Shown: in pieces, positions 11,819 through 33,017 of the stretch | Position numbering within the stretch: position 1 is the stretch's first letter | Layout of the letters: every line of letters starts with the position of its first letter | Origin: Candidatus Fermentibacterota bacterium | GTDB taxonomy: Bacteria > JAFGKV01 | Length of the DNA stretch: 64,000 nucleotides | Assembly: GCA_016928395.1 (NCBI GenBank) | Contig: JAFGKV010000114.1 | Coordinates: 16,525-80,524, forward strand | Reading direction: 5' to 3' | Made by a program: the position numbers and the translations under genes | The notes under the pieces: generated by a model | What the model was told of the DNA's origin: nothing | What the model saw: only the letters and a program-made list of their open reading frames with translations | The model's database searches: none

Positions 11819-13000
11819 ATGAGGATGGCGATGCGCATACACAAGCCGCTCGAACTCTGCCGGGTTGACCGTGCGTTGATTTTGGCCGCCCTGCCCATGC
11901 TGTTCTATGCGGTGGGCACGGCAGTAGTGGCCCGTGACCTCCAATCCCACCTGCCGTCCGGTCCTTCCCGGCTGGTCTTCTCGTCGGCCGTCGACTGGGC
12001 ATTGGGCGTGGTAGCCGGATATGCTGTTCTCATCGCACTCGGTGTTGTGCTGCGTCACCGATCGCCATCGAGCGGTGTCTTCGTGTACATGACCCTGGTC
12101 TACTTCGCCATCAATAACGCGATTCTGGCCACGTTCATCGGGCCACTCTCCAGCCCGCCCTGGCTCTCCATCCTGGGGCTGGCAGTACTAGGCCTTCTCC
12201 TCCTGGGTTCCCGGGAAGTCTTCACCAGTATCAGCATCTACCTGGTGGCATTGGGCCTCATCCATGCGCTGGGGACGACCGGCAGGCTTCCTTACCGGTA
12301 CATCTTCGAGGAAGGCGCGGCGCCTTCGTGGTGGATGTGGCGGATGGCAGTGGTCACCATTGCCAATACCGTGATCATCGTTCTGGTTACCGCCTATGTC
12401 GTTGCGGCATGGCAGCGGCGGGAATCCAGTTTCCGCGATCTTTCCAACCAGGATGATCTCACCGGCGTGGGGAATCGCCGCTTTCTCAGCCATGCTCTGC
12501 GCACTGAATTCTCCCGCGCCCGCCGCTATGGCCGGGAGATGACCTACGCCATTGTCGATCTTGACCACTTCAAGCGTGTGAATGACCGGCACGGCCATCC
12601 CATTGGAGACTTCGTTCTCAGGGCAACGGCAAAGGCTTTGACCGCCTCCACGCGGGAAAGCGACACGGTCGCCCGCTGGGGAGGCGATGAGTTTGTGCTG
12701 CTCTTGCCCGAAACAGGCGTGTCAGGTGCACAGGAACTGGCCGAACGGTGCAGAGCCGCCATTCGCGCGACCGTGGCCGCCGAGACGGGGATAGGGATCA
12801 CCAGCAGCGTCGGCATCGCCTCAATGCGCCACGAGGGTCTTCACTCCCCGGATGATCTGGCTCGGATCGCGGACACAGCCCTGTACGCGGCCAAGCAGGC
12901 CGGTCGGAATCGCGTGGTGATCGCCGCCGAGCCGGCGAAAGACGGCGTCGTCACCTTTCCTCGAATCGTCTCTCAGAATCCGCGCCCCAACGCTATGTGA
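11819..13000 (+). CDS. Membrane-anchored diguanylate cyclase (GGDEF domain)
   Basis: Six or so N-terminal TM helices, then a GGDEF domain: GVGNRRFLSHAL...YAIVDLDHFKRVNDRHGHPIGDFVL...RWGGDEFVLLLPE (intact GGDEF motif). Start placed at an internal Met cluster (MRMAMRI); the ORF begins at 11678. Confidence 0.75.
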   Translation: MRMAMRIHKPLELCRVDRALILAALPMLFYAVGTAVVARDLQSHLPSGPSRLVFSSAVDWALGVVAGYAVLIALGVVLRHRSPSSGVFVYMTLVYFAINNAILATFIGPLSSPPWLSILGLAVLGLLLLGSREVFTSISIYLVALGLIHALGTTGRLPYRYIFEEGAAPSWWMWRMAVVTIANTVIIVLVTAYVVAAWQRRESSFRDLSNQDDLTGVGNRRFLSHALRTEFSRARRYGREMTYAIVDLDHFKRVNDRHGHPIGDFVLRATAKALTASTRESDTVARWGGDEFVLLLPETGVSGAQELAERCRAAIRATVAAETGIGITSSVGIASMRHEGLHSPDDLARIADTALYAAKQAGRNRVVIAAEPAKDGVVTFPRIVSQNPRPNAM

Positions 13001-14589
13001 ACGCGACCCTGGAGCGGATCACTCCCGCGGGGCACGCCGTAGGCTAGTTCGATCATGCCCACTGTGGTGCGAGCCATGATACCCATCCCGACCCCCAGCA
13101 GTCCTTCATGGCGCTCACCCACTTGATACACGCCACAGTCGACAAACGCGAAAAGTGATGATGCACCGCGCGATACGCGATGCAACTCCATCACGATCCA
13201 CCCGGCGCTCTCTGTACGGAATTGGGCTTCACGGTAGCCGCGCACGGTCCGTGCGCCACCCACCGAGAAGCGCTCGGGAAGCGGAAGCTCCTGACCTCCG
13301 TGTACGGCATGCCGCGCAGCACCACGAAGGACTGCCAGGATCCCCGACCCGAGCCCCAGCGATCGCCGGACGTCGACCTCGACACGTACGACAGGCGTCA
13401 CGATCTCTGAGGCAATCTCACGCAGTTCCTGGTACCCGACCCTCAGACTCACCCAGGATCCCGTGGGAGGGACATCGTCGCCATGCTCCCTGTTCCAGAT
13501 TCCCTTTCCCCACGCCTCATCCGCCCTGGTTGAGGCAAGAGGGGCCCCTTCGCCCGGAATCACCCGCCGGCCACGATACCCGATGTAGCCCCTGAAGCTG
13601 CCTCCGAGGTCCCAACCAAGGGCGACCGTTCCATCCCGCTCCACCCAGAGGGTGTCTTCCACCACCTGATTGATGCCGATCTCCAGCGACGGCGGCAACC
13701 CAAGAATCCACGGCTCACGGTACGTCAGCGCCAAGTCGGTTCGCCCAGCGCCACGGGCTTCCCATCGGAACGATGCTTCCCGGGCCGTGCCCGCGATGTT
13801 GCGAAATGCGGCCTGCACACTGCCCACCACCGCGCCGTCCCTTGCAAGACCCACCGCGCCCCGGGCTGTATGGGTAACCCGCTCCACCAGGGGAAACCGC
13901 ACCACAACTCCACCAGGGTCGATGCCGCGCAGAAGTACGGGTTCACCAACCGAGGAGTAGTACCCGGTTTCTCGCAGTCGAGCCACCGCACGATCCATGC
14001 CGCTCTGACGGTACGGCATGCCTGGCCTGATTCCCGCCAGTTTCGACACTACGGAAGCTCTCGTTCTCACAGAATCCGATACCTCGATGCGCTCGATGAC
14101 ACTCCGCGGGCCTGCAGTCGCGCCGACGCGCAACGTCACCATCCCGGCACTGCTGTCCACATCCACATGTCGAACGCCGAGAGAAACAAATGGAAACCCC
14201 GCCTCCTCATGCGCTCCGAGGAGTGTGCTCAGCCTCGCAGTGACGACGCCTGCCTCCCACGGACTCCCTGCCAGATCCTGCAACCGCAGCACTGCATCAG
14301 CGGCATCCGACGAGGCGCCATCCACCACGATACGAGCCACAGTGTATCGCCGCCCGGGAACAAGGCGAAGCGTACGCACGCCTTCCGCCGCGGTGGTCTC
14401 GAATCGTGCCTCGAAAAAACCGTTCCTGCCCAATTCGACCAGTATATCCTCCTTGACGCAGGATTCCCGCCCACTCTCGGTGGTGTCGGCACATGGGGCA
14501 GCGAATCGGGAGGCGGCCGACTCCGGTAGGATGTCACTCATCTCCCACACGGTGGCCATGAGCCCCATCGCTACGACTGCGCAGATCAT
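12973..14589 (-). CDS. Omp85/BamA-TamA family outer-membrane protein
   Basis: Signal-like N-terminus MICAVVAMGLMATVW. Long soluble POTRA-like region followed by a beta-rich C-terminus ending ...VHIALGRGF (terminal Phe typical of OM barrels). The start ATG shares one nt with the upstream stop (TGATG at 14587-14591). Confidence 0.6.
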   Translation of the reverse strand: MICAVVAMGLMATVWEMSDILPESAASRFAAPCADTTESGRESCVKEDILVELGRNGFFEARFETTAAEGVRTLRLVPGRRYTVARIVVDGASSDAADAVLRLQDLAGSPWEAGVVTARLSTLLGAHEEAGFPFVSLGVRHVDVDSSAGMVTLRVGATAGPRSVIERIEVSDSVRTRASVVSKLAGIRPGMPYRQSGMDRAVARLRETGYYSSVGEPVLLRGIDPGGVVVRFPLVERVTHTARGAVGLARDGAVVGSVQAAFRNIAGTAREASFRWEARGAGRTDLALTYREPWILGLPPSLEIGINQVVEDTLWVERDGTVALGWDLGGSFRGYIGYRGRRVIPGEGAPLASTRADEAWGKGIWNREHGDDVPPTGSWVSLRVGYQELREIASEIVTPVVRVEVDVRRSLGLGSGILAVLRGAARHAVHGGQELPLPERFSVGGARTVRGYREAQFRTESAGWIVMELHRVSRGASSLFAFVDCGVYQVGERHEGLLGVGMGIMARTTVGMIELAYGVPRGSDPLQGRVHIALGRGF

Positions 14590-17500
14590 CAGAAGTACGC
14601 TACCAATTCCATCGAACCTTCTCGCACTTTGCCCCTGCCCGCCTCTGATCCGACGCTCAGGCTCATGGTCAAGGTCAACTTCTCCTGTATCTTGTGTTCG
14701 CCCCCAACCTTGATGAGACGGGAGAAACCCTCTTGATCCACGCGGCGCAGCAATGGAGCCAACGCAGACCACGGCCCATCGGCCCGGCGCCATGCAAGCT
14801 CACCATCGATGCGGAACCGTCCTCTCCCGGGCAACGCCAGCCGAAGCCCGGGTGTGACCACGGCCGCATGGAGCACGGCCTCGGTCGCTTCTCTGCTCTC
14901 GCCCGCCACTTCTCGGACAACGTCTTCCCGGGAGAGCTCGCCGCTTCCCACCACATCCAACCGGCCTGTTAGGGGCAGAGAAACAGCCGGCGAGAATCCC
15001 CAGGTCTTCGACCTCGCCACCACCGTGCTTCCTCCTGAGAGCGCGGGACTCTCCCGTTCCTCGGATGAGGCGCGATACACGGCCATGTCGGTGGAAATCA
15101 TCTTCCATCTCGCTCCCCTCGCCCGCACGGCGCATCGCGTCTGATGACGCCTGGTGCGCTGGTCTACCCGCCGGTTATCCGCATCGGCAGCGTAGGCGAA
15201 CTGGGTTGCGATGGCGAACTCGCCGCCCGCGGGCCGAACCTGCATGCTGCCGTCTATTCGACTCACGCGCCGTAGTGTCGTGGAATCGCACTTCACTACT
15301 GCAGGGCGCAACAGGTAGAGATCCGTTCTCCTGTCTGACCGGCTGGTGACCTGGATACGACCGGTCACGTCAGCATTGATGCGCCGTCGCCACTCCGGGC
15401 CACGGCCCCCTGGTGCCAGGCGGAGCCCAACGATCCCCTCCACCAAATCTGTCCTCTCGGCGCCCCCGGAGGGCACCAAGACCTTTTTGTGAGTACCCAG
15501 TTCTGTGCCCACCCACGTTCCCAACGAATCATACTCGCCCACATTGGTCTCCCACGATTCCTCCGGGACCAGTTCTTCGACGAGCTGTTCCGATTGTCGG
15601 CCCGAGATCTTGTAGTCCAGCTCCAGCCTGGGCCCCCAGGACACCGGCAGTGCGGATACCCGTGCGGTGCCCAGAGAGGACACAATGTCCTCGGGCAGAA
15701 CCTTGCCTTGATCCGCCAAGAGCATCCGGTAGGCAGTGGCATAGCGGAGCCGGGTGTGGTTGAAGTCAACCCTGGCCGTCGCCTTGACACCCGCGTTCCC
15801 CGCCACGCCTATCTCCCACCACCGTCCTGACGAGCTGCGCATCCATGCGTCGGGATCCGTGATATGCTCTTTGGTGATTCGGCTGCCGGTTACCACCCTT
15901 GCCGTTGTAGCGGAGCGGCCGATTCGTGCGCCCGCGCCGATATCCATGTACCCCCGGCCCGAGAGCCCGCTGTTCGCCTCTCCCTTCCACATCACGAGAG
16001 GACTCCAGAAACCGAAAGGACGATCCAGCGCGCCGTCGGTCCACCACCGCGTGTCGTCTTTGGCCACTGATCGATTGAAGCGCCCAGTCATTGAATAACC
16101 GCCCGGACCCAGAATCGTCCCGGTCACTTGAGCCCGGCGGGATACTGTCGTCCCCCGGCGCATTCCACCGAGCACGAGGCCGAGGCGACCGTCCCGGGGC
16201 AGCCCGAAGGATAGATCCAGCGTGGCTTCGTCCTCGGAGCCAGTGTCGTCGATACCGCTCCAATCCCGTGTCCATTCCACCGGCCTGGCGCGGCCGGGCG
16301 TCGCGAATCCCGCTCCCTGAGACCGCCACGTTGCGCCCCCCTGCCACCACGGAAAGACTCCTCCCCCACCATGCGCCGACAGATGGGCGTACACTGCGCC
16401 CTGGGTATTGTCCCGGTCATCCCGTGAGGATAAGGTATTAGCATCCCGTACCCCCGCCGCTGCCTCTACATCCAGACGCATGCTGTCCTCTCCCACGCGA
16501 ATACCGACAACCGCGCTTTCGTGCGACCGGGGTGCCTGTACGGTTCGCCAGGCCACGTAGTCCCCGTGCCCGGGCCCGACATATGCCCAAAAGGCGGCGT
16601 CAACGCGCACATAGTCGCCTCCTGCATCACGGTAGAACGTCGCCTCAAAGGCCCCGGCGCCCCCCCCGAGCGAGCTGATCCGCCCCATGTCCACGGGAGT
16701 GTGCGGCGCCCGCGGGATCTCCCCCCCCCGCACTAAGATCACATCCTCACGGCGGTCGTATGCGCCTGCGCCCGTGCTTTCGGCTCGGGCTGCGAAAGGC
16801 CCGCCGCCCGGACCGTAGTACTCGAAACGCGAGCCGACCCGGCGATAGGAGCCCGAGGCCCCGACCGAATCGAACACTGCGTCCCATCCTCCCCCATCGT
16901 GGGGCACGAGAAAGCCAACGTGCAGGGTGTCATACGTGCCCGCGTTCAATCCGACAAACCGGTAGGTGGGCGCCCTGGCCCGTTCGGGATCGTCGCCCGC
17001 GGCCCCCAGCACCGCCCGCTCCTCCTCACCCAGAATCCAGTCCATGGGCTGGGATGCATCGTCTGCTTCACGAAACGCTGCGAATCGTATGGTTATTGCG
17101 TCGGAGATGCTGCGGACTGCCGTTGCCAGGTACACGGTGCGACGGTAGCTCTCCGCGGTGTACTGGAAGTCGACGCTGATGCGCGACAGTCCGGTAATTG
17201 GGCGGCGCTCGGTAAACGTCACCTCGCCAGTCGAATAGTCGATGGTGTAGTCCTTGTCACTGCCTCGGGCCACGGGCGATCCGTCGACCCAGACCCGTTC
17301 CGTTCCCGCCAGGATGACGACGGTACTGGCCCCGCCAGAGAGATGGCGCGCCAGGTAGTAGGGACCTTGGGCGCCGTCGATGCCGGTGAATTCGACACTC
17401 ACGAAGGTCCCCCCGGTGGAAGCCGCAGCCACGTCTCCGGACCACTGCCCGTGGGCCAGCGTACCGGCAACGCCCTGCATCTTTCTCTCAAGGCTCAAGA

Positions 17501-18194
17501 ACCTGAACCCTTCTGTGGCGATGGCGCAATCGCCCACGCTAAGACTGCTCTCCTTCCGCTTCAGCTCGATGACCACACGGTCAATGTCACGCAGCTCCTG
17601 GGTCGTGCCCTGAGGCTGGATGGGCGTACTCTGGTCACTCAGTGAGGCGGTGACCTCCACGTCGCCCGCCAGCCTCCCCTGAAGCTGTACCTGTAATGCC
17701 TGGTCAAGGCTGGGATCTTTGCCTGAGCCGAACCGTACGCCGATGGTCTTGGTGCCGGCGACCTGGAGGGAATGCTCGGACGAGAGATCGGCGGGGTATT
17801 CCGTGGCGGGAGCGGCCGCCGTCACTGCCACAATCTCTTCACCCGGCGAAGGCAAAGCGCGGCGCTGGAGGTGAACCGGTATGCCCAACGGCAGAAAACG
17901 ATACTGGATGCGTACCGTGCTTTCGGCCATGCTGGGGAGGAAGTGAATGCGATTGCGGAAGTCAAGACGAAACCCAGCGCCGGCGGAGAGAAGAGAGTCG
18001 GCCGCCCACACCACGACGGATTCGCCCACGACAAAGGAATCCGGCAGCGCCACCTCCCGAGGCACCGGTGGTCCTAATGCGATAACCCTCTGGATCCCTG
18101 GCGCCGCCTGGGCATTGAGCCCGAGGAAAAGCAGAAGGATGCAACAACGGATAGCCCAGCCCCTGCCTGACGGCGCCCGTTCTTCCCTGTCCAC
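14589..18194 (-). CDS. Giant (~1200 aa) exported W/G/R-rich beta-type protein of unknown family; C-terminal ...ELVAYF
   Basis: ORF 14589..18641. A probable GTG start near 18194 gives signal peptide (M)DREERAPSGRGWAIRCCILLLFLGLNAQA|AP. No motif recognisable to me. Terminal aromatic residue and abundant alternating aromatic/Gly segments suggest an OM beta-barrel or beta-rich exported protein. Confidence 0.5.
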   Translation of the reverse strand: MDREERAPSGRGWAIRCCILLLFLGLNAQAAPGIQRVIALGPPVPREVALPDSFVVGESVVVWAADSLLSAGAGFRLDFRNRIHFLPSMAESTVRIQYRFLPLGIPVHLQRRALPSPGEEIVAVTAAAPATEYPADLSSEHSLQVAGTKTIGVRFGSGKDPSLDQALQVQLQGRLAGDVEVTASLSDQSTPIQPQGTTQELRDIDRVVIELKRKESSLSVGDCAIATEGFRFLSLERKMQGVAGTLAHGQWSGDVAAASTGGTFVSVEFTGIDGAQGPYYLARHLSGGASTVVILAGTERVWVDGSPVARGSDKDYTIDYSTGEVTFTERRPITGLSRISVDFQYTAESYRRTVYLATAVRSISDAITIRFAAFREADDASQPMDWILGEEERAVLGAAGDDPERARAPTYRFVGLNAGTYDTLHVGFLVPHDGGGWDAVFDSVGASGSYRRVGSRFEYYGPGGGPFAARAESTGAGAYDRREDVILVRGGEIPRAPHTPVDMGRISSLGGGAGAFEATFYRDAGGDYVRVDAAFWAYVGPGHGDYVAWRTVQAPRSHESAVVGIRVGEDSMRLDVEAAAGVRDANTLSSRDDRDNTQGAVYAHLSAHGGGGVFPWWQGGATWRSQGAGFATPGRARPVEWTRDWSGIDDTGSEDEATLDLSFGLPRDGRLGLVLGGMRRGTTVSRRAQVTGTILGPGGYSMTGRFNRSVAKDDTRWWTDGALDRPFGFWSPLVMWKGEANSGLSGRGYMDIGAGARIGRSATTARVVTGSRITKEHITDPDAWMRSSSGRWWEIGVAGNAGVKATARVDFNHTRLRYATAYRMLLADQGKVLPEDIVSSLGTARVSALPVSWGPRLELDYKISGRQSEQLVEELVPEESWETNVGEYDSLGTWVGTELGTHKKVLVPSGGAERTDLVEGIVGLRLAPGGRGPEWRRRINADVTGRIQVTSRSDRRTDLYLLRPAVVKCDSTTLRRVSRIDGSMQVRPAGGEFAIATQFAYAADADNRRVDQRTRRHQTRCAVRARGARWKMISTDMAVYRASSEERESPALSGGSTVVARSKTWGFSPAVSLPLTGRLDVVGSGELSREDVVREVAGESREATEAVLHAAVVTPGLRLALPGRGRFRIDGELAWRRADGPWSALAPLLRRVDQEGFSRLIKVGGEHKIQEKLTLTMSLSVGSEAGRGKVREGSMELVAYF

Positions 18195-18240
18195 CGCGCC
18201 TAAACCGTTCCGTCCACGGAACCGCGGGCGCGCCGTCGCG

Positions 18241-19095
18241 CTACGGCACCTCGGCCAGGGCAAGCCCCACGATCGTGTCGCTCTCACGTTCCGCGACAAG
18301 AAGCATGCCATCCGTGGCGAAACACACGGCGGACGGGCTGGCGAGTTGCGGCATGCCGGCAGGCGGGCATGACAGATCGTAGACGACACCGTTCTTGAAC
18401 ACCCTGACGACATGTGCCTCCTCGTCAACCATCGCGCCGAGCCCGTCTTTGCGAATGTCCACGCTCCCCGGCGATCCCCCCACCGCGATGGCTCCCCGAT
18501 GGTTGCCGTGTGTGTCAAAGAAGTGCACAAGGCCTCCAGCCTGATCAGACACCGCCACACGTCCAGCCGCACATGCGAGGCCGGCCGGTATGAGCGGGAT
18601 TCGCGGTTCGTCTCCTGCCCCGCTGAGTCGGCGCAAGCCATCGAAGGGGTCTGTTACCATGATCGTTCCTGAGCCCTCGTCGGCGACAAACACCCGCCCG
18701 TCGGGCAGCGAGGCCACTGCCAGGGGTTTCCAAGGCCACACTCCGCCACCGGGGCCACGGATCTCCGTCACGGGCACACCGGCTCTGTCGACCTTCAGCA
18801 TGCGTGAACCGTCGGTATCAGCCAGATAGACGAACTGCCCCCCCGGATCCGTGACTGCCACGCGGTCTGAGAACTCCATCCATCCCTGCCCATTCCCACC
18901 GAAGGAGCGGACATGCCTGCCGTCCATAGAAAAGAAGTGAAAACGGGCCACTCCACGGTCTCCCACCCAGAAACCACCATGGGGACTCCGCGCCAACGCC
19001 TCCGGGCCATGCAGGATGCCCGGCCCAACCACCACGGATGACGACATCACCGACACGGTCTCCATAGCGGCGGCCGTCAGCAGCGCAAGTATCAT
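18241..19095 (-). CDS. NHL-repeat beta-propeller protein (exported)
   Basis: Signal MILALLTAAAMETVSV. Repeated blades: GQFVYLADTDGSRMLKVDRAG, DGRVFVADEGSGTIMVTDPFDG, AGRVAVSDQAGGLVHFFDTHGNHRGAI, DGMLLVAERESDTIVGL. ATGA overlap with the tonB stop. Confidence 0.5.
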   Translation of the reverse strand: MILALLTAAAMETVSVMSSSVVVGPGILHGPEALARSPHGGFWVGDRGVARFHFFSMDGRHVRSFGGNGQGWMEFSDRVAVTDPGGQFVYLADTDGSRMLKVDRAGVPVTEIRGPGGGVWPWKPLAVASLPDGRVFVADEGSGTIMVTDPFDGLRRLSGAGDEPRIPLIPAGLACAAGRVAVSDQAGGLVHFFDTHGNHRGAIAVGGSPGSVDIRKDGLGAMVDEEAHVVRVFKNGVVYDLSCPPAGMPQLASPSAVCFATDGMLLVAERESDTIVGLALAEVP

Positions 19096-19784
19096 CGGAG
19101 AACAAACTCCACGGTCACGTCGCCGGTGGCGTCGGCGGATCCCGTCACCGATTCGAAACGCCATTGTCGAAGAGCCTCTATGGCGGCGTCATCCAGGGCG
19201 GGGTGAGCTTTGAGTACCAGAGTCGCGACCCTGACGTTCCCGTCCGGCGTGACCACCAGACGAACCTTGACAATCCCCCCGCTGGGCGCGCCCGGGGGAA
19301 AGACCGGGTCGACCATGTAGATCGGCGTTCGGGTCGAGAGCGTCCCTTCCACTCTGACTTTGACTCCCGATCCCACCGCCGGCGAGGACGTGGTCACCGG
19401 CATCGGAGCCAGTCGTGCGCCCGGAGAGGGGCCGGGAGGGGCAGGATCGGACGGGGAGAGCAAAGGGCTGGGGGGACGGTCCGAAAGAGCAGAGGAGGCC
19501 GGCAAGTCGGGAAGAAGTGCTTCGTTCCGCTCGGAAGCCGGCAGCGGCGCGATGTCACCGGTGCGTGCCCGCGGCCCTGTGGACTCCCGGGGCGGTGCCT
19601 GCGGCGCCGGCTGTTCCTCTGCCGAGGAGATCTCTCCAGCCAGCAACTCCACCTCCAGAGGCGGCGCCGCCATGGGCCGCACAGAGACATGAACAAGGAG
19701 GAAAAGCACGGCAAGGAGACCGTGCAACGCCACGGCGGCTCCCACTCCCACATGAGAGGGGGAACACCACGGATCGCGTCTCAC
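19092..19784 (-). CDS. tonB: Energy transducer TonB (N-terminal TM, Pro-rich linker, TonB_C domain)
   Basis: TM LHGLLAVLFLLVHV. Pro-rich PSPLLSPSDPAPPGPSPGARLAPMP. C-terminal PIYMVDPVFPPGAPSGGIVKVRLVVTPDGNVRVATLVLKAHPALDDAAIEALRQWRFES matches the TonB C-terminal fold pattern. Confidence 0.65.
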   Translation of the reverse strand: MRRDPWCSPSHVGVGAAVALHGLLAVLFLLVHVSVRPMAAPPLEVELLAGEISSAEEQPAPQAPPRESTGPRARTGDIAPLPASERNEALLPDLPASSALSDRPPSPLLSPSDPAPPGPSPGARLAPMPVTTSSPAVGSGVKVRVEGTLSTRTPIYMVDPVFPPGAPSGGIVKVRLVVTPDGNVRVATLVLKAHPALDDAAIEALRQWRFESVTGSADATGDVTVEFVLR

Positions 19785-20203: not shown

Positions 20204-20816
20204 CTTCACCCTGAGTCGGCACCAGGCGCAGCAACTCCACCGCTGCGCGACGCATCTGGTGAGCAAGGCCTTCGATCTCGCCCACCAGCCAGTTGTTGCC
20301 GATGAGCGCGGGTATGCCCACCACCAATCCTCCGGCCGTGGTGACCAAGGCCTCCCAGATTCCTCCAGCGAGGATACTGGCATCAACCTGCCCGGCATGG
20401 GTCTGCACCTGCATGAAGGCCCGGATCATGCCCGTCACCGTGCCTAAGAACCCGACCATGGGCGCGGCGGCCGCCACGATGGCGAGCCAGCCTATGCGCC
20501 GCTCAAGAGTGTCGATCTCCAACTGCCCCGCCATGGCCATGCCGTCCCGCGCGACATCGCGATTGCCGCCGGCCTCCAGCCCCGCCAGTAACACCTTCGC
20601 TACGGGTGCGGTGCTTCGCCTGCACCGGGCCTGTGCTACTTCTTCCTGGCGCTCCTTGACCAGCGCCAGGATTTCCCAAGAGATCCGGTCAGTCCCCTTC
20701 CGGGCGCGCCGCAACACGATGTAGCGCTCGATGAACACCGCCAGGGCCACCAGTGACCCCAGCGCGATGGGCACCATGAAGTAGCCGCCCTTGATCACCA
20801 GCGTGAGAAGATTCAC
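20181..20816 (-). CDS. exbB: MotA/TolQ/ExbB proton-channel protein
   Basis: Probable GTG start (VNLLTLVIKGGYFMVPIALGSLVALAVFIERYI) sharing one G with the upstream TAG stop (ctaGTG). Three TM helices. Conserved C-terminal segment WLAIVAAAAPMVGFLGTVTGMIRAF. Confidence 0.7.
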   Translation of the reverse strand: MNLLTLVIKGGYFMVPIALGSLVALAVFIERYIVLRRARKGTDRISWEILALVKERQEEVAQARCRRSTAPVAKVLLAGLEAGGNRDVARDGMAMAGQLEIDTLERRIGWLAIVAAAAPMVGFLGTVTGMIRAFMQVQTHAGQVDASILAGGIWEALVTTAGGLVVGIPALIGNNWLVGEIEGLAHQMRRAAVELLRLVPTQGEDDGPVVV

Positions 20817-22243
20817 TAGGCTCCCTCCTGCCCGTAGGGCCGTTTGAGGCTCCATCCTAATCCGATCGCCACCATCGTGCGAGGACGCGCGGTGAGGCTG
20901 AACCCCCACCCACTGGATCCTCGAGCTATCGCTTCCCAACCCCCTCCCAGAGGCATCGCCACATCCAGCGTGACACCGCCTGATGCCGGGAGTGAAGCGT
21001 CCCACCCATGCAGTCCTGTTTCTCCTTCCACCGTTGCCCGGAGCCGGGGACGCTGCCCGCGGGCAGCAGACACCCACCACTCCATTTCCGGAATGAGGGG
21101 CCACTGCGCCGAGTACGGCAGAGAGCCAGCCCGGGTGGTGACCTCCAGTCCATCCAACGCCACGCCGCCACTGATCCGCCCTCGCGAGTCATGCCACGAC
21201 ACGGCCAGGCTTACCTTGAAGCCTTCTCCGGCCAGCGATTCCGTTACCCAGAGGTCGTCAACTTCCCGCCAGGCAGGCGCATGGCCAATGTGTCGATCCT
21301 GGAGAGTCCCAACGACGGTCATCCGGGGCGACGCCCGAACAGCCACGGTCGCGTCCACACTCCAATCCGTCACACACGCATGGCCAGAGGTCGTGGGATG
21401 GGCTGCGGGGAAGGCCTCACGCAGCGAGGTCTCATCGAGAAACGAGAGTGTCCGCTCTGCCGAAATCGCCCACGCGGTGCGTCCCAACGAGAGGGGACCG
21501 AGGCGAGTGGATGCCTCCATGATCAGGCGAGTCGTGTCACCATCGTCAACCATCATGGGACCGGCGCTGACCATGATCCGGGGACTCTCGTGGCACCAAC
21601 GCACCATGCCGCCCGCGACATGATCCCCCCCCGTCACCTCGAAGGGAAGATGCACTCCCGGCACATGGCCGGATACCCAGGCCTGACCATGGAAGGTGCT
21701 CTTCTCCCCCTCCCAGCCGCTCCCCGAGACCATGGCCCGGGTATGGTACAGGCCCAACGGGACCTCAGCCCAGAGACGTCCATGGACCCAGCCCGGTGCG
21801 ACCTCGATCTCGTCCAGCCGATCAGCCCAGTGCTGCACCCTTAGTCCCACGGACCCCCACGCGCCCGCCGTCAGAGCGCCGGCGCGCATGCCCCGGCGCT
21901 CCAGACGCCCCGCATCGAAACTCCAGAGCCGGGCCGCCACCCCGCCGCCGGCTTCTCCGAGACCGGCCGTAATCACTCCCGCGTACACGGGACCGGCGGC
22001 CGCGGACAGGCTGAATCCTACCGGGGGAGGCCGGTGAAGCGGCCGGACCGGGGCCTCCCGGTGCGAATCGCCCATCTCCGGCCTCGGCAACTGAATCGGG
22101 GGGATTGCCCGAGGAAGCAGCGGGGCAGACCAGAACTCCCTCTGGGGAAGATCAAGCTGTGGGGAGCCCTTCACCACCAGATGGGGCAGGTCTAGCTCGC
22201 CGGCCGCCATGACGAAGATCAGGCCGGCGACAAGGCTGCTCAC
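20816..22243 (-). CDS. Hypothetical exported W-rich protein, probable outer-membrane beta-barrel (475 aa)
   Basis: GTG start overlapping the upstream TPR stop (GTGA). Signal MSSLVAGLIFVMAAG. Many Trp/Gly. No family recognised. Confidence 0.4.
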   Translation of the reverse strand: MSSLVAGLIFVMAAGELDLPHLVVKGSPQLDLPQREFWSAPLLPRAIPPIQLPRPEMGDSHREAPVRPLHRPPPVGFSLSAAAGPVYAGVITAGLGEAGGGVAARLWSFDAGRLERRGMRAGALTAGAWGSVGLRVQHWADRLDEIEVAPGWVHGRLWAEVPLGLYHTRAMVSGSGWEGEKSTFHGQAWVSGHVPGVHLPFEVTGGDHVAGGMVRWCHESPRIMVSAGPMMVDDGDTTRLIMEASTRLGPLSLGRTAWAISAERTLSFLDETSLREAFPAAHPTTSGHACVTDWSVDATVAVRASPRMTVVGTLQDRHIGHAPAWREVDDLWVTESLAGEGFKVSLAVSWHDSRGRISGGVALDGLEVTTRAGSLPYSAQWPLIPEMEWWVSAARGQRPRLRATVEGETGLHGWDASLPASGGVTLDVAMPLGGGWEAIARGSSGWGFSLTARPRTMVAIGLGWSLKRPYGQEGA

Positions 22244-25086
22244 GGGCCGGCTCCAACGCCTTCGCCCGCCAATCGCCGCGCAGCCTCATTGGCTGGAGCC
22301 GCCAACGAATCCTGAGGGGAGAGGTAGGCCAGCCGGAGATAGAGCCTGCGTGCTTCACTGATGCTGCCCAAGGCTTCCTGAACCCGCGCGGCAATCCAGT
22401 AGACCCGTGGGGAGGGCCCGGTCGAGCGTTCAAGAAGCGGCGAAAGCCATGCCCAAGCGCTGTCGGCGCGGTCGGCGGCCAAATGCGTCTCCGCCCCGGC
22501 CAGGACTGCCTTGTCGCGCCACTCCACGCCGCCGGTGCTGGCCAGTGTCGCCCAGACGGCAATGGCCGAATCGGAGGAATCTTCAAGGGCGAAGCCCAGT
22601 TCATACCGTGCGGCGTCTCCCAGCTCGCTGCCTGGATAGAGGGCCAACATCTCTCGCAATAGCCTCGCCGCGGTAGCGGAATCCCGGGGGCGGGAGAGCC
22701 GCGCAGCCTCGTAGAGCCCCTCTGCGGCTTCGCGGGCATCGGGCCAAAGGCGAGCCAAGGACTCAAATGCCTCCTGCGCCTCGTCCACCCGCCCGGAACG
22801 GGCAAGACTCCACGCGGCACGCAGATCTGCCCAAGGCGTGCCAAGACTTCGATACAAGGGCAATGCATCCTCGTATCGATTGAGCCCGAAAAGAAGGTCT
22901 GCCTTTGCCTGGATCAGCCCGCTCCTCCTGCTCTCGTCCTGCGCCCGATTCAGCAGGGTATCACAGAGGATGATGGCCTGCCCGGCATCCGACGACTGCA
23001 ATTCCGCCCACAACGCTCCCTGGACGGCATGGGCCCACAGGTCAGAGTCAGGATAGCCTTGAACCAAGGAGAGATACGTGGTACGGGCAGTAGCATACTC
23101 ACCACGGTTATACTGACAATCTCCGATCCGATAGAGGGCATTGTCCCGCACTGTACGATCCCGTTGAAGGGCGACTACCCGTCGGTATTCGACCTCCGCC
23201 TCGTCGAATCTGCCGGCGCGGAAGAGGGCCTCAGCCTTCTCGAACAGCGCATTGTCGGCAATGTCTTCGGTGGGCGATGCATGGAATAGCCTGTCCAGCG
23301 TGGCAATAGCCTCATCAGTCTCACCGGCCAGCGACAGGGCCCGCCCCAGCCCCAACAAGGCTTCATCACCAATCTCGCGGCGGGCAACAATCTGGGTCGC
23401 CGCCCGGTACGATGCTGCGGCCTCGCGGTAGAGTTCCTGGGCCATGAGCACGTCCCCCGCGCGAAGAGTTGCCCTGGCAGCAGTCTCTGATCGCGGGTCG
23501 GCCGCCGCGGCTTCCCTGAAGCCCGCCAAAGCGTCGTCGTTCTTCCCCATGGAAAGAGAGGCCCATGCCCTGCCGAAGGCTGCGTCAGCCCGCTCCCGAG
23601 CCGTCGGCATGCCCGGAAGCGCCTCCCGATAGGCGGCCTCCGCCTCGGACCACCTCCCCTGACGGGCAATGGCCTCAGCTTTCCAGAATGCAATCCTGGC
23701 CGCAAGGCTGTCGTTCACCGACCCGCTGAAGGCACCGGCCAGACGCTCCACCCGATCCCATGACTCGGCACGATAAGCGGCAACCAGGGCCCGATATCCT
23801 AGATCGTGCGCCAGGTCTCCTTGCGCACGATCACGGGCATCGAGGAAGTACTCAGATGCATCGCTCCACCGGCCCTCGGCCGCCGAGATCTCAGCATAGA
23901 GAGCAAACGCCTCCACGCTGTCTCCGCGGCTGTGCAGGCGGGCCAAACCCCGGTCAAGGGTCTGCCTCGCCTCCCCCAGCCGGTTAAGATCGCGCTGGAG
24001 GCTCGCCCGAAGGAGAATGGCCCTGGCCAGCAGCGTCCGGTCGCTGATCCCGGCAGTTTCCACCGCCAGGAGCGAATCACCCGCCCCGGGCCGATCTGTC
24101 CTCTGAAGTGCGCTGGCCAGCAGGACTGCTGCCTCGCCCCGCTCGCTGCCCTCAAGCGTGCGCATGGCGCCTGAAAGCAACGCCGACGCCTCTTTGGGCC
24201 GGTCTTCCTCCATGTACATCCACCCCAGCAGCCTCACCGATTCAAGCCCGCGCTCGGCGAGAACCGCGATGGCCTCATCGTGCCGGCCCTGATCCCAGAT
24301 GCTGCGCGCCTTGAGTTCCCGCACCACTCGCGAATCCGCTCGTTCTGGCCAGCGCCGCGCCAGTGTCTGGAGGGTTACCTCGGTATCCGCGGGACGCTCC
24401 GTCTCCACCAATAGCCTCGCCAGGGACACTATGTCATCAGGCCGTGCATCGGGGCTGGCTACCAGCCTCGTCAAGACGTCTCTGGCCTGCTCGTCGCGCC
24501 CCATGCGCTGCAGGGCCTCGGCCTGGCGTCGCAGTGCCCATCCGTGGAGATCACCGGCGGGAAGCTTCTGGGTTGCCTGGCTCAGGAGTTCCGCGGCGCG
24601 GGGAAACGCATCTCGCCTGAATGCCGCCTCGCCGGCCCAGTAGATAGCCTCACCTGCTCCATGAGAGGCCTCGGCGGCAGCCCGAAGATACAGGCTCTCG
24701 GCTTGAACGAACGAGCCCAGCTCGAACAGCGTCGCAGCGAGACGGAGGAGGGCTTCACCTGTCCATGGTGAGACCGGATGCGTGGCAATAAAGGATTCCA
24801 GACGTGTGCGAGCGCGTACCCATTCACCCAGTTGCACCCAGCAGTCTGCCGCCAGAAAGGCGGCTTCCTCGGCATCGGGATGTGATCGACGCTGAGCGAC
24901 GAAGCGTTCGAGTTCATCAGCAGCCAGACGGTACTCGCCCTGGGAGTAAAGGTGCCGGGCGAAGTCAAGATCGAGCCGGGCACCGGCATCGGGTTGCGCG
25001 CGTAGTGGTGACACCGATGGCATGAGGACCACGAGGAGCCCGACAGCCCCGATGACCGCACCGCGGGGATGAAAACGCCGCATCAT
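22240..25086 (-). CDS. Large periplasmic tetratricopeptide-repeat protein (~949 aa)
   Basis: Signal MMRRFHPRGAVIGAVGLLVVLMPSVSPLRAQ. More than 20 TPR-like helix pairs across the length (AEALQRMGRDEQARDVLTRL; YRIGDCQYNRGEYATARTTYLSLV, etc.). ATGA overlap with the upstream lipoprotein stop. Confidence 0.65.
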   Translation of the reverse strand: MMRRFHPRGAVIGAVGLLVVLMPSVSPLRAQPDAGARLDLDFARHLYSQGEYRLAADELERFVAQRRSHPDAEEAAFLAADCWVQLGEWVRARTRLESFIATHPVSPWTGEALLRLAATLFELGSFVQAESLYLRAAAEASHGAGEAIYWAGEAAFRRDAFPRAAELLSQATQKLPAGDLHGWALRRQAEALQRMGRDEQARDVLTRLVASPDARPDDIVSLARLLVETERPADTEVTLQTLARRWPERADSRVVRELKARSIWDQGRHDEAIAVLAERGLESVRLLGWMYMEEDRPKEASALLSGAMRTLEGSERGEAAVLLASALQRTDRPGAGDSLLAVETAGISDRTLLARAILLRASLQRDLNRLGEARQTLDRGLARLHSRGDSVEAFALYAEISAAEGRWSDASEYFLDARDRAQGDLAHDLGYRALVAAYRAESWDRVERLAGAFSGSVNDSLAARIAFWKAEAIARQGRWSEAEAAYREALPGMPTARERADAAFGRAWASLSMGKNDDALAGFREAAAADPRSETAARATLRAGDVLMAQELYREAAASYRAATQIVARREIGDEALLGLGRALSLAGETDEAIATLDRLFHASPTEDIADNALFEKAEALFRAGRFDEAEVEYRRVVALQRDRTVRDNALYRIGDCQYNRGEYATARTTYLSLVQGYPDSDLWAHAVQGALWAELQSSDAGQAIILCDTLLNRAQDESRRSGLIQAKADLLFGLNRYEDALPLYRSLGTPWADLRAAWSLARSGRVDEAQEAFESLARLWPDAREAAEGLYEAARLSRPRDSATAARLLREMLALYPGSELGDAARYELGFALEDSSDSAIAVWATLASTGGVEWRDKAVLAGAETHLAADRADSAWAWLSPLLERSTGPSPRVYWIAARVQEALGSISEARRLYLRLAYLSPQDSLAAPANEAARRLAGEGVGAGP

Positions 25087-25688
25087 TCGCTCGTGACAAA
25101 GAAGAGGGCCAGCAACGTGCCTACCACGCCGGCGACCACCATGGGCGCCACCACACCTGGCGACGTAGGCACTGCTGCCGAAGGTGTGAAAACAGGATCG
25201 GACAACCCTGCCAATTCGACGGCCGGTGTCCACTCCTGCCGGCGGTCCACGGCCCTGGTGCTGGCAATCACGTCGCCGCCCGGCCCGAGCAGCCGCGCCA
25301 CCAGACTACACGACCCATCGCGCAGAACCCAGGGTTTCATCATGATCCCCCGTCGGTCAACTTTCCGATGGCGAACCCCCAACTCCACGATGCGCACGTG
25401 GAGTGTGTGGGTCGTGGAGTCACGTCCACTCTCCCGCAGCGCAAATCCGCGACCCAGCAGCTCGCCCTCCAGCAATGAACGCACAAGCCATGCGCCTTCG
25501 CCCCCGCCCGTCATCTCAAGACTGAGGCCTTCTTGTGGGTACGCCTTACATAGTGCGGTCACGCTGTCCACCGCGACGGCAGCCGCCCTGCTCACCATCT
25601 CGAGATCGGTAGGCTGCGGACGAAGCTGGGCAGAACCGGATGCGCAGGCCAGGAACCCCAACCCGACCAAGGCGAGGTAGCGCCTCAC
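25083..25688 (-). CDS. Hypothetical exported/lipoprotein-like protein with C-terminal TM
   Basis: GTG start overlapping the upstream stop (GTGA). Signal MRRYLALVGLGFLACASG. C-terminal hydrophobic VVAPMVVAGVVGTLLALFFV. Confidence 0.4.
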   Translation of the reverse strand: MRRYLALVGLGFLACASGSAQLRPQPTDLEMVSRAAAVAVDSVTALCKAYPQEGLSLEMTGGGEGAWLVRSLLEGELLGRGFALRESGRDSTTHTLHVRIVELGVRHRKVDRRGIMMKPWVLRDGSCSLVARLLGPGGDVIASTRAVDRRQEWTPAVELAGLSDPVFTPSAAVPTSPGVVAPMVVAGVVGTLLALFFVTSE

Positions 25689-26203
25689 GGCTCCTGCTCC
25701 AGATCATACAAGTCGGTAATACGGAAGCGATCGTCGGCGCACCTCGTAATCACAAACTCCGCCCAGAAGTAGCCGACGCCTTTCTCGAAAAGCTGGTCGG
25801 CGGTCTCCCAGACGAGTAGATCGCACTCTCGGTACAAACGCCACGTCTCCGGATCGTCGCTGATTCTGGTCGCATAGTCTCCCACCATGGTCAGCTCGAT
25901 GTGATCCATGGTGCTGAACATCTTGCGGTGCATCCGCTCCTCCTCCACCTTGCCCCAGGAAGGCGCCGGCCAGATGTCGTTCACGTCGCGGGGGACCAGA
26001 TGGAACTCAAAGGTGTCCACGAGGCATTCCAAGTAGCGGTCGATATCTTTGCGTTGATAGGCGTTGGCCAGTTGCACGACGACGCCTGCAGGGGTTGCCA
26101 GCAAATCCTGGGGGTCACCATCATCCTTGTCCGGGTCAAAGATGCAACCGGCAAGGCATAGGGCCGCCACCGGCAGGATCACGCCCACTTTCCATCTGGT
26201 CAT
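25685..26203 (-). CDS. Hypothetical lipoprotein
   Basis: Signal plus consensus lipobox ILPVAALCLAGCIFD (L-A-G-C). ATGA overlap with the ClpX-like stop. Confidence 0.4.
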   Translation of the reverse strand: MTRWKVGVILPVAALCLAGCIFDPDKDDGDPQDLLATPAGVVVQLANAYQRKDIDRYLECLVDTFEFHLVPRDVNDIWPAPSWGKVEEERMHRKMFSTMDHIELTMVGDYATRISDDPETWRLYRECDLLVWETADQLFEKGVGYFWAEFVITRCADDRFRITDLYDLEQEP

Positions 26204-27798
26204 GGCTCCTCCTTATCCTCTGAGTTACCCGCGGACTTCGACCGGTTTGAACCCGTAGGCAGCGGGGGTTCACGGTGGGCATACGTGGTCTTGATCATCG
26301 CATCAAGGTAGGCACGGGGATCTTTGCATGCCGCGAGGCCAAGTCGCAGGCTCCTCTTACCCGCCAACTGCAGGCCGTACTCCAAGTCCGCGAACCGCTC
26401 CTGGCAGAATGCCTTGACATCCTGACCATCCTGCGTTGCGCGGTCAATGATCCAGCGACGAGCCGGGGGAGTAATATCGATTCGGATCCCGGTGCGTTCC
26501 CGAAACTGGCTCGCAAAGACCTCAAGCAGCCCTTTCACCAGCACCTGCCGAAGATCTCCCTCGGGATCAAGAACTGTGTCCTTCGTCACCACGACCCGGG
26601 GAATTCCGGAACCGGGGATTCCATGCTCGAAGGGCAGTAGGCATCGCTCCAGAATCGACTTCAGGCCCCGAGCGCCAGTCCCCTCGGCGGACGCACGATG
26701 GGCGATCTCCCGGTATGCATCATCGGCAAACTCCAGGGTTACCCCATAGGATGCGAAGTCCCGTATCTTGCCTTGCGTGAGTGGGCTCAGCGGAGTCCTG
26801 AGGATCTCCAGGAGCTTATCTTCATCCAACGGGTGGAACACCACGACGATGGGAAGCCTGCCGATGAACTCCGGTTCAAACCCGTACGCGATAAGGTCTT
26901 CAGAGCGAACCTGGGAGAGAATCCAAAACGGATTCTCAAACTTCGCCTCTTCAGTAGACTCGAAGCCGATGACCCGTTTGCGCAGGCGACGGCGTATGAT
27001 ATCGTCCAGCCCGACAAACGCACCGCTCATGATGAAGAGTATGTTGCGGGTGTTAATCTTCTTCCGGTGTACGCGGCCCGTGCGCTGGGCCTCCATCATC
27101 GCCTCCATCTGACTGGCCAGATCGAATGGCGCCCGCAGATCGACTTCCGTCTCCTCCATGAGCTTCAGCAGGTTCCGCTGCACACCCGTACGGGACACAT
27201 CCGGTCCCTGTGTGACACCACTGGCCGCGATTTTGTCGATTTCGTCAAGATAGATGATCCCATGCTCCGCCAGAGAAACCATACCGTTGGCCTGGTGGGC
27301 CAGATCCCGGACCAACTGCTCGACATCGCCACCCACGTACCCGGTCTCGCTGAACTTGGTGGCGTCACCCTTGACGAACGGCACCCCCAGTTCTTCGGCA
27401 ATCAGCCTGACGATGTAGGTCTTGCCCACACCCGTCGGGCCGATCATGAGCATATTCGCCTTCACCTCCCCCACGAGACGCCGCTCAGCAGAGGCCGATT
27501 CCCAGGCTACCCTGTGAAAATGCGTACAGACCTTCGTTGCCATGGCCCTGGTAGCCTCGCCCTGCCCGATGACGAACTGCCGGAGACTGCCTTCCAGGCC
27601 GGCAGGCAACACGTCGAACCGAATCCTCTGGGGTTCATCCTCCGGCTCCTCCGCCTTCGGTGGCGCCGGACGCGCCGCAGGCATCATGACCTTCACACCG
27701 TACTGGTCACCGATAAAGCCCTGCAGCTTCTCCTGGAGTTTCTCCAGGACACGCTCGAAGCCCTCGGCACCCTCTTCCCTTGTCGTCTCGTCACTCAT
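26200..27798 (-). CDS. ClpX/HslU-family AAA+ ATPase (ClpX-like unfoldase without Zn-finger N-domain, extended termini)
   Basis: Walker A MLMIGPTGVGKTYIV. ClpX-like GDATKFSETGYVGGDVEQLV. Walker B GIIYLDEIDKIA. Sensor VQRNLLKLMEET. No CxxC zinc-binding N-domain. About 110 aa N- and 150 aa C-terminal extensions. Start chosen at MSDETTREE after GGAAGGA. Confidence 0.65.
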   Translation of the reverse strand: MSDETTREEGAEGFERVLEKLQEKLQGFIGDQYGVKVMMPAARPAPPKAEEPEDEPQRIRFDVLPAGLEGSLRQFVIGQGEATRAMATKVCTHFHRVAWESASAERRLVGEVKANMLMIGPTGVGKTYIVRLIAEELGVPFVKGDATKFSETGYVGGDVEQLVRDLAHQANGMVSLAEHGIIYLDEIDKIAASGVTQGPDVSRTGVQRNLLKLMEETEVDLRAPFDLASQMEAMMEAQRTGRVHRKKINTRNILFIMSGAFVGLDDIIRRRLRKRVIGFESTEEAKFENPFWILSQVRSEDLIAYGFEPEFIGRLPIVVVFHPLDEDKLLEILRTPLSPLTQGKIRDFASYGVTLEFADDAYREIAHRASAEGTGARGLKSILERCLLPFEHGIPGSGIPRVVVTKDTVLDPEGDLRQVLVKGLLEVFASQFRERTGIRIDITPPARRWIIDRATQDGQDVKAFCQERFADLEYGLQLAGKRSLRLGLAACKDPRAYLDAMIKTTYAHREPPLPTGSNRSKSAGNSEDKEEP

Positions 27799-32928: not shown

Positions 32929-33017
32929 TGGCGGAGGGGGTGGGATTCGAACCCACGGACCCCAGAGGGGTCAACGGTTTTCGAGACCGCCCCGTTCAAC
33001 CGCTCCGGCACCCCTCC
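32929..33017 (-). tRNA. tRNA-Ser (anticodon CGA), class II with long variable arm
   Basis: Reverse complement reads GGAGGGGTGCCGGAGCGGTTGAACGGGGCGGTCTCGAAAACCGTTGACCCCTCTGGGGTCCGTGGGTTCGAATCCCACCCCCTCCGCCA. Acceptor GGAGGGG/CCCCTCC. Anticodon loop CTCGAAA. T-loop GGTTCGAATCC. CCA encoded. Confidence 0.8.

Follow-up and report, generated by a model that had tools for sequence, protein, structure and literature searches.

In a stretch of 64,000 nucleotides (nt) from the genome of a Candidatus Fermentibacterota bacterium (contig JAFGKV010000114.1, assembly GCA_016928395.1; hereafter the window), we found that eleven consecutive minus-strand genes, termed g1 to g11, join a ClpX-like AAA+ ATPase, a Ton/Tol-type motor, an exported beta-propeller, a giant outer-membrane protein and an Omp85-family protein in one operon. 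The gene combination is undescribed, though the modules from which it is put together are found apart from one another in other phyla; an earlier note on this DNA had known of no operon of such composition, and our searches of the literature likewise returned none. We infer its function, and our reading, held tentatively, is that the operon encodes a Fermentibacteria-specific trans-envelope complex of the Ton/Tol type, driven by the proton motive force (PMF) and built from three modules, A (g1), B (g2-g8) and C (g9-g11). The genes are as follows (window coordinates; aa, amino acids; TPR, tetratricopeptide repeat).

12973-27798, minus strand: block g1-g11, eleven consecutive open reading frames (ORFs) arranged head-to-tail
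26200-27798, minus strand: g1, ClpX-family AAA+ ATPase, 532 aa (Pfam AAA_2, 3.6e-28; ClpB_D2-small)
25685-26203, minus strand: g2, probable lipoprotein, 172 aa, with a clear lipobox LAGC in the translation
25083-25688, minus strand: g3, probable lipoprotein, 201 aa, with a less typical lipobox FLAC and a C-terminal hydrophobic helix in the translation
22240-25086, minus strand: g4, exported TPR protein, 948 aa, with five CpoB/YbgF-like TPR modules (many Pfam TPR families)
20816-22243, minus strand: g5, lineage-specific outer-membrane protein, 475 aa, predicted plug-less 22-strand barrel (model and translation)
20181-20816, minus strand: g6, ExbB/TolQ-family proton-channel subunit, 211 aa (Pfam MotA_ExbB PF01618, 6.4e-28, 97.5 bits, cut-off 22.9)
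19781-20200, minus strand: g7, ExbD/TolR-family subunit, 139 aa (Pfam ExbD PF02472, 2.5e-25)
19092-19784, minus strand: g8, TonB-family energy transducer, 230 aa (Pfam TonB_C PF03544, 4.9e-8, 33.7 bits, cut-off 24.6)
18241-19095, minus strand: g9, exported six-bladed NHL beta-propeller, 284 aa (Pfam NHL, 1.7e-9)
14589-18194, minus strand: g10, giant outer-membrane protein, 1201 aa, predicted barrel of about 44 strands (AlphaFold2 model)
12973-14589, minus strand: g11, Omp85-family protein, 538 aa (Pfam Omp85 PF01103, 2.5e-7; POTRA, 3.7e-6; ShlB, 7e-6)

All eleven ORFs named in the earlier note exist, and the composition of each of them follows the coding signature GC1 > GC2 < GC3. Its calls of a ClpX-like AAA+ protein, a TPR protein, ExbB, ExbD, TonB, an NHL protein and Omp85 are backed by hidden Markov models (HMMs) of Pfam and NCBIfam, and the giant and the 475-aa protein, whose placing in well-characterised families would have counted against its proposal, have no Pfam, NCBIfam or PDB sequence match and fall into no characterised family. 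The size of 475 aa was correct, whereas the TPR protein has 948 and not 949 residues; the giant, given as about 1200 aa, has 1201.

To compare gene order, 80 loci of the g10 family were fetched. The full eleven-gene order was found in the window contig, in L082 (GCA_900174595) and in L091; L087 shows the first ten block genes up to the end of the locus, and L090 the first three (the AAA+ gene and both lipoprotein genes) up to the end of its contig. These four relatives are all Fermentibacteria-like, and the flanking genes differ in every one of them; the synteny on which the earlier note had staked its proposal is thus present. Overlapping junctions amounted to 10/10 in L082, 7/10 in L091 and four of the nine visible in L087, and the module boundaries g1/g2 and g8/g9 are overlaps of 1-4 nt in three genomes out of the four in which they are visible. 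The best-conserved protein of the block is g7 (76-91% identity across relatives); the values are 59-73% for g2 (in L082, L091 and L087), 48-60% for g10 and 36-59% for g3 (in relatives); identity goes down to 26% for g5, and g5 and g9 reach 26-36%. That the order was kept while g5 and g9 fell to such values speaks for selection on co-expression. The three-module joining appears, from the loci compared, to be restricted to Fermentibacteria-like relatives, whereas the g10 family is present in at least 578 species of the Genome Taxonomy Database (GTDB) belonging to the Fibrobacterota-Chlorobiota-Bacteroidota (FCB) group (Ignavibacteriota, Bacteroidota, Calditrichota, KSB1, Zixibacteria and relatives). 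The block therefore best fits a lineage-specific joining of modules A, B and C rather than one ancient unit, module C being an older, FCB-wide outer-membrane unit. Of the undescribed PMF-energised machine proposed in the earlier note, the combination of genes has proved real, conserved and undescribed; it has also proved modular and narrow in distribution, with the unfoldase as its weakest link. That the genes make up one PMF-powered machine for secretion or assembly, with the unfoldase as a part of it, is still a hypothesis.

The junctions between the genes and the region upstream are the following.

26200-26203, minus strand: g1/g2, ATGA
25685-25688, minus strand: g2/g3, GTGA
25083-25086, minus strand: g3/g4, ATGA
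22240-22243, minus strand: g4/g5, GTGA
20814-20818, minus strand: g5/g6, TAGTG
g6/g7 (ExbB/ExbD), minus strand: 20-nt overlap
19781-19784, minus strand: g7/g8, GTGA, 4-nt overlap
19092-19095, minus strand: g8/g9, ATGA
g9/g10 (NHL/giant), minus strand: 46-nt separation
14587-14591, minus strand: g10/g11, TGATG
27799-28166, no strand assigned: divergent intergenic stretch upstream of g1, presumed to hold the operon's promoter

Every overlap site listed in the earlier note is present in the sequence. The site at 19781-19784, which had been taken for mere abutment of stop and start, is a 4-nt overlap, and the tight linkage described for the whole block applies to eight of the ten junctions (1-4 nt); the 20-nt overlap and the 46-nt gap were absent from the list. 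Shine-Dalgarno-like motifs (AGGAGG/GGAG) precede most of the overlapping starts, within the upstream gene. Starts at -4 or -1 occur at 8/10 block junctions as compared with 5/20 of the other same-strand junctions in the window (Fisher p = 0.007). The start of g10 at 18194 is backed by the 1201-aa NCBI protein and by its signal peptide. Gene overlaps are common in the genome at large, as in an ABC transporter/RNase II-like pair (60904-60907). This pair belongs to a plus-strand chain at 56988-62721, in which overlaps of 1 nt and 4 nt link an RNase II/R-like gene with two genes for MsbA/SmdA-like ABC half-transporters, indicating that translational coupling in this genome also joins functionally unrelated genes.

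Non-coding DNA of at least 370 nt separates g1 from a divergent plus-strand gene upstream (28167-29378, 403 aa), which shows coding-type composition (GC1/2/3 = 0.60/0.44/0.77) and no Pfam match; the minus-strand ORFs overlapping it lack such a signature. A sigma-70 consensus site was not found in 27799-28166 by a scan that does not cover FCB-group promoters, and a consensus scan for promoters and terminators gave no more sites than shuffled sequence. The stability of a hairpin in the g9/g10 gap was not above that of shuffles (z = -0.85), and Rfam and tRNA scans detected no RNA genes within the block. Downstream, a gene for a membrane-anchored GGDEF diguanylate cyclase (11678-13000, plus strand) converges on the operon, and the 3' ends of the GGDEF and Omp85 genes overlap by 28 nt; an antisense or cyclic di-GMP regulatory link is possible. 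The divergent non-coding DNA on one side and the convergent GGDEF gene on the other make g1-g11 a discrete co-directional unit.

The motor lies in module B. The best NCBIfam model for g6 was TolQ (85.6 bits, cut-off 221), followed by ExbB (65.1 bits, also below its cut-off); for g7 it was TolR (49.6 bits, cut-off 127.3), followed by ExbD (43.9 bits). With its start taken as in the Logan gene call, g7 retains the transmembrane Asp (SLTDIVFLLL; transmembrane-segment motif SLTDIVFLLLIFF), which we take to be the counterpart of D25 of E. coli ExbD. The translation of g8 shows an N-terminal transmembrane helix with a His, a Pro-rich linker and the TonB_C domain; it passed TIGR01352 tonB_Cterm (36.5 bits, cut-off 27.1) and matched no TolA model of NCBIfam. 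A signal peptide is seen in the translation of g4, which scored 168 bits against TIGR02795 tol_pal_ybgF (cut-off 90.1), a sum over five repeated partial matches within 948 aa, and stayed below the cut-offs for CpoB PRK10803 (31 against 383 bits), PorW/SprE (72 against 250 bits) and BamD. The lipoproteins g2 and g3 had no Pfam or NCBIfam match, only chance-level hits in the PDB search, and no detected relatives outside the lineage.

The remaining protein of module B, g5, is encoded directly upstream of exbB-exbD-tonB and is 100% identical to NCBI JXA88_07025. No Pfam, NCBIfam or PDB sequence match was obtained, a PDB profile search gave nothing informative, and Plug and TonB_dep_Rec were unmatched in Pfam by all members of the family even at E <= 10. 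The family is very narrow, since 1.84 billion proteins contained just six representative clusters of it, and a metagenome scan with its alignment returned only the known L082 contig. The model of g5 (predicted local distance difference test score, pLDDT, 68; predicted template modelling score, pTM, 0.66) consists of about 60 disordered N-terminal residues followed by a barrel that superposes best on the 22-strand barrels of TonB-dependent transporters. In those transporters a plug of about 150 residues (PF07715) fills the 22-strand barrel (PF00593); g5 lacks it and has the disordered segment in its place. Directly after the signal peptide, the eight sequences of the family conserve L-x-L-P-x-[LV]-x-V-x-G, a motif that resembles TonB boxes such as DTLVVTA and may be a putative TonB box. 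A similar short motif was noticed near the mature N-terminus of g10, where LPDSF[VI]VxGS (17990-18104) is conserved across phyla and resembles LPH-LVVxGS of g5 (22165-22200); a shared 'LPxx[FL]VVxGS' motif was considered, and since it is short and its register differs by one residue, we leave it unexplained.

In module C, the sequence of g10, which closes with ...VAYF, agrees with NCBI JXA88_07000 at 100% identity. The protein had no Pfam, NCBIfam or PDB sequence match, and a PDB profile search that included SprA entries was empty at E <= 1. AlphaFold2, given an alignment of 35 sequences, produced a confident model (pLDDT 78, pTM 0.70), in which 44 long strands are accompanied by a beta-sandwich at the N-terminus and an inserted beta-domain, both small. 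The highest query-normalised TM-scores were those of SprA complexes, at only 0.21-0.27; the model thus has no close solved relative. With 36 strands, SprA is the largest barrel solved (10.64898/2026.03.07.710327), and a barrel superfamily of 38 and 40 strands was predicted from contact maps by Solan et al. 2021 (PMC8346858; their families 002/003). TamB, LptD, SprA, an usher and a TonB-dependent transporter were tried as identities of g10 and rejected, as no HMM matched and structural overlap was partial only. The family consensus conserves a loop, LSDxNxPIQPEGxTQxLxExD (mature residues ~155-175; window 17576-17638), which is modelled at pLDDT < 50 and is a candidate partner- or ligand-binding element.

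The genes on either side of g10 accompany it widely. In 20 loci an orthologue of g9 directly precedes the giant gene, at a median gap of 4 nt; these orthologues carry Sec-type signal peptides, mostly without a lipobox. By PDB sequence search g9 matched the NHL propellers of TRIM71, TRIM2 and the PknD sensor; no TolB or PD40 match and no TolB N-terminal domain were found in Pfam, NCBIfam or PDB. Behind the giant gene, about 20 loci have an orthologue of g11, at a median gap of 12 nt, and the g11 orthologues are always tied to the giant gene. With POTRA domains and a C-terminal Omp85 barrel, g11 has what defines the Omp85 superfamily (PF01103, 31 bits, cut-off 24; PF07244, 28 bits, cut-off 21.3; orthologues reaching 91 and 117 bits); its barrel is of the 16-strand type and ends in ...GRGF, and its length of 538 aa leaves room for about three POTRA domains as compared with the five of BamA. 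The earlier note had allowed for an ordinary BamA here. PDB entries of BamA were matched at 4e-8; however, the BamA model TIGR03303 gave 62.9 bits (cut-off 297) over model positions 235-462 only, the POTRA3-5 region, and the TamA model NF047950 gave 22.4 bits (cut-off 625), so g11 is neither.

Two further arrangements of the trio or its giant gene were found outside the Fermentibacteria. In L083 (5246-9012) and in the JGI contig of P0008 (giant 33% identical), DUF6754 and three further integral membrane proteins are encoded ahead of the trio; the L083 module comprises a DUF6754 protein with a fibronectin-like N-terminus, two polytopic membrane proteins of about 225 aa and a bitopic protein of 288 aa, and it occurs in no other fetched locus. 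The DUF6754 set may be an alternative inner-membrane partner module, and its position ahead of the trio suggests that the trio generally works with an inner-membrane partner. In the Balneolaceae chromosome OZ245886 (L055, 9722-15365), the giant gene is followed directly by exbB-exbD-exbD, in a neighbourhood with dsbD, an AIR-synthase-like gene and ftsH. Here the g10 family adjoins a Ton-type stator for a second time, independently of the first.

The sequence of g1 (module A) is identical to an NCBI entry named 'AAA family ATPase'. It shares with ClpX, the unfoldase of ClpXP, the AAA+ core, the pore loop and the IGF-type loop that docks on ClpP: residues 65-411 align with solved ClpX (8yd0) over about 345 residues, and GYVG (GYVGGDVE) and VIGF (RVIGFES) line up with the matching ClpX loops. 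It differs from ClpX in lacking the N-terminal C4 zinc-binding domain (no zf-C4_ClpX match in Pfam, no Cys among the first 60 residues), in carrying a C-terminal extension of about 120 aa and in scoring below the NCBIfam ClpX equivalog cut-offs (NF003745, 300 bits against 359; TIGR00382, 271 against 371). Its relatives form a distinct family of about 505 aa, at about 50% identity, which is common in KSB1, Calditrichota, Latescibacteria and Bacteroidota. In L087 a B12-binding radical-SAM gene (356-2152) shares 4 nt with the start of the ClpX-like gene; it is not at that position in the window or in L082. We regard g1 as co-transcribed with the other genes and as the least certain participant of the proposed machine.

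What the data show is which genes are present, how they are coupled, conserved and arranged in modules, and which folds are predicted; all protein contacts, transport direction and substrate we infer. Under the proposed model of a PMF-driven trans-envelope complex, g6 and g7 would form an inner-membrane ExbB-ExbD stator in which the proton-relay Asp of ExbD is kept, and g8 would span the periplasm as its TonB-family transducer. The 948-aa TPR protein may serve as a periplasmic scaffold, and the two lipoproteins would accompany it. The C-terminal domain of g8 would dock on the N-terminal box of g5, and possibly on the giant-barrel complex too, and force derived from the PMF would gate or remodel the wide plug-less pores predicted for g5 and g10. 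As an outcome, a large substrate would be moved across the outer membrane, or the outer membrane would be maintained. By analogy with LptDE, MtrAB and SprA-Plug, the NHL propeller, presumably soluble in the periplasm, could act on the giant barrel as its plug or cap, a partner placed in the lumen or in the periplasm, and the Omp85 protein g11 could be the dedicated insertase or partner of that barrel.

The alternative to be taken most seriously is a mosaic operon, in which independent modules are merely co-transcribed in a compact genome: a housekeeping ClpX paralogue, a TonB nutrient-uptake system with g5 as receptor together with the TPR protein and lipoproteins, and an FCB-wide NHL-giant-Omp85 set with an unrelated, possibly housekeeping role. 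We judge it somewhat unlikely. It is favoured by the occurrence of every module alone elsewhere, and several observations weigh against the proposed complex. The AAA+ orthologues of about 505 aa were unlinked to block genes in both other-phylum loci examined (2/2), having rimP-nusA-infB or other unrelated genes as neighbours. In about 20 of the 80 loci (KSB1, Zixibacteria, Calditrichota, Zhuqueibacterota and others) the NHL-giant-Omp85 genes form a tight operon without nearby Ton genes, and in Ignavibacteria and Bacteroidota the giant gene stands alone amid housekeeping genes (NUDIX, PfkB, IF-2B, RecO, HtrA). Because modules A and C thus occur without Ton genes in other phyla, their linkage here could be operonic convenience. 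The giant/exbBD adjacency of the Balneolaceae chromosome has housekeeping genes around it and no tonB. Overlaps of 4 nt are frequent between unrelated genes in the window (the 5/20 junctions given above), and the radical-SAM/AAA+ overlap in L087 makes overlap alone weak evidence of shared function; the inter-module junctions of L087 are gaps of 98-355 nt, and L091 also has inter-module gaps. As to the predicted folds, the strand count of g10 was read from a DSSP string and a single closed barrel is a prediction, the g5 model is of moderate confidence (pLDDT 68) and was built from a shallow alignment, and the TonB-box reading of g5 concerns a short hydrophobic motif in eight sequences only. The organism is uncultured, and the system is known here from genes and models alone. 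Against the mosaic stands the persistence of the three-module order despite the divergence of g5 and g9 and the wholly changed flanks, since synteny so durable is rare without selection, together with the 1-4 nt overlaps at both module boundaries in three of four genomes.

A highly derived Tol-Pal-like system for envelope integrity and cell division is, in our judgement, unlikely, and less likely than the mosaic. It would take g6-g7 as a TolQ-TolR pair energising a TolA-like g8, with g9 in place of TolB, g4 in place of CpoB/YbgF and the barrels in place of Pal as the outer-membrane anchor. The order of motor, transducer and propeller does parallel tolQ-tolR-tolA-tolB in the canonical tolQ-tolR-tolA-tolB-pal-cpoB cluster, TolQ and TolR outscore ExbB and ExbD for g6 and g7, and g4 exceeds the tol_pal_ybgF cut-off with its five CpoB/YbgF-like stretches. 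A similar Tol-like make-up is also seen in the Fibrobacterota cluster FSU_2396-2398 plus FSU_2400-2403 (PMC6851124). However, none of the eleven products has a Pal/OmpA-family peptidoglycan-binding match in Pfam or NCBIfam, and the scores for TolQ and TolR are far under the equivalog cut-offs. The transducer g8 passes the TonB C-terminal model and matches no TolA model. The 284-aa propeller g9 is of the NHL and not the PD40 type, lacks the TolB N-terminal domain and matches no TolB model; in evolution it is part of the giant-barrel trio, which is free of TolQR in other phyla. Moreover, the block differs from Tol-Pal in its five-fold larger TPR protein and in its additional barrels and Omp85 protein.

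The cluster FSU_2396-2403 is the closest published analogue in gene content, as compared by description. In Fibrobacter succinogenes, of a related FCB phylum, an OmpA gene (FSU_2396) and TPR genes (FSU_2397-2398) lie near ExbB-ExbD-ExbD-TonB genes (FSU_2400-2403); on cellulose the cluster is up-regulated, and a multiprotein complex of the outer membrane contains the TPR and OmpA proteins (PMC6851124). The same paper reports no giant barrel, Omp85, propeller, ClpX-like gene or g5-like barrel there, in which the present block differs from it.

The block was also compared with the other known envelope systems. With the ExbB-ExbD-TonB system and its transporters it shares the MotA_ExbB domain of g6, the transmembrane Asp of g7 and the Pro-rich linker and TonB_C domain of g8, as well as an adjoining barrel gene whose product is modelled with the same 22-strand geometry and a TonB-box-like N-terminal strand. 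It differs in that g5 lacks a plug and any sequence similarity to the transporter families, and in the additional 948-aa TPR protein, two lipoproteins, propeller, barrel of about 44 strands, Omp85 protein and ClpX-like ATPase. The translocation and assembly module (TAM) is resembled by a TamA-sized Omp85 protein with about three POTRA domains next to a gene for a partner of about 1200 aa; in contrast to TamB, an AsmA-type beta-taco anchored in the inner membrane, g10 is a predicted outer-membrane barrel with a C-terminal beta-signal (aromatic end) and has no DUF490/TamB match, and the TamA score of g11 is likewise far too low. From BAM, the machinery for beta-barrel assembly, the block is set apart by the sub-cut-off BamA score and fewer POTRA domains of g11. 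The Agl-Glt gliding and Nfs spore-coat loci of Myxococcus are described as combining a TolQR-type motor, TonB-like proteins, several TPR proteins, lipoproteins and outer-membrane barrels. Beyond generic domains, the block's sole Myxococcus-type match, to the C-terminal model of AgmX/PglI, was weak (E = 0.0036), and unlike the block those systems are not known to have an Omp85 protein, a giant barrel or a ClpX-like gene, the Glt barrels being small.

The system for type IX secretion (T9SS; GldLM/PorLM, SprE/PorW, SprA/Sov) resembles the operon in logic: both belong to the FCB group, and in both a PMF-powered motor of the 5:2 stator class is combined with a transducer spanning the periplasm, with a large TPR protein and with an outsized barrel. 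Sequence homology is absent for SprA, PorW (g4, 72 against 250 bits) and GldLM, the motor here is ExbBD/TonB, and g10 has half the length of SprA yet more predicted strands. We also considered the bolder proposal of an undescribed PMF-driven outer-membrane translocon, T9SS-like in logic and unrelated in sequence. The ExbBD-TonB motor and the TPR scaffold would run a barrel of more than 40 strands, the largest single-chain beta-barrel pore yet seen, with the NHL propeller as plug, a dedicated Omp85 protein as its insertase or partner and g5 as the TonB dock; the ClpX paralogue would handle cargo preparation or quality control in the cytoplasm, and the trio would be the core of a new FCB-wide transport system. 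Taken as a whole, this proposal is improbable. Elsewhere in the window, a plus-strand gene at 46940-50848 (1302 aa) encodes an M36-metallopeptidase-like region and has a weak match to the T9SS C-terminal sorting domain (22.4 bits, cut-off 23); this below-threshold score hints that a T9SS may exist in the organism apart from the operon. In sum, the block lacks at least one tested defining feature of each of Tol-Pal, TAM, BAM, T9SS, the TonB-dependent transporter family and canonical ClpX; it does fit the generic ExbB-ExbD-TonB system and the Omp85 superfamily.

An ordinary TonB-dependent nutrient receptor (a divergent g5 or g10) next to a housekeeping BamA (g11) is very improbable and, on the evidence of HMMs and models, largely refuted, since the fit of the g5 model to 22-strand transporter barrels and the match of g11 to POTRA3-5 of BamA are outweighed by the lack of Plug and TonB_dep_Rec matches in g5 (its family even at E = 10) and g10, the mere ~60 disordered residues of g5 where a plug of ~150 is expected, a size of g10 about twice that of any TonB-dependent transporter, and the 63 bits against 297, 538 aa, about three instead of five POTRA domains and constant tie to the giant gene of g11 and its orthologues.

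Among the other features of the window, genes for tRNA-Ser(CGA) and tRNA-Arg(ACG) lie at 32929-33601 on the minus strand, with no further Rfam family at the gathering threshold, and a minus-strand ORF at 39831-42068 (745 aa) has coding-type composition and no NCBIfam match.

With the Fermentibacteria operon, a genome hints for the first time at what might energise the NHL-giant-Omp85 module, a Ton/Tol-type motor, and a plug-less barrel like that of TonB-dependent transporters, as predicted for g5, would be an unusual use of TonB. If the modules are independent, the finding shrinks to a well-conserved mosaic operon and a new outer-membrane protein family. That family, to which g10 belongs, is widespread, uncharacterised and without a Pfam or NCBIfam model, and is predicted to form barrels bigger than the 36-strand SprA. 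Its association with a dedicated Omp85 protein and a propeller partner in many phyla raises the questions of how such a barrel is assembled and what cargo it carries. Since Melioribacter roseus, a Balneola strain and a Lewinella strain are cultured carriers of the family, these questions are experimentally approachable.

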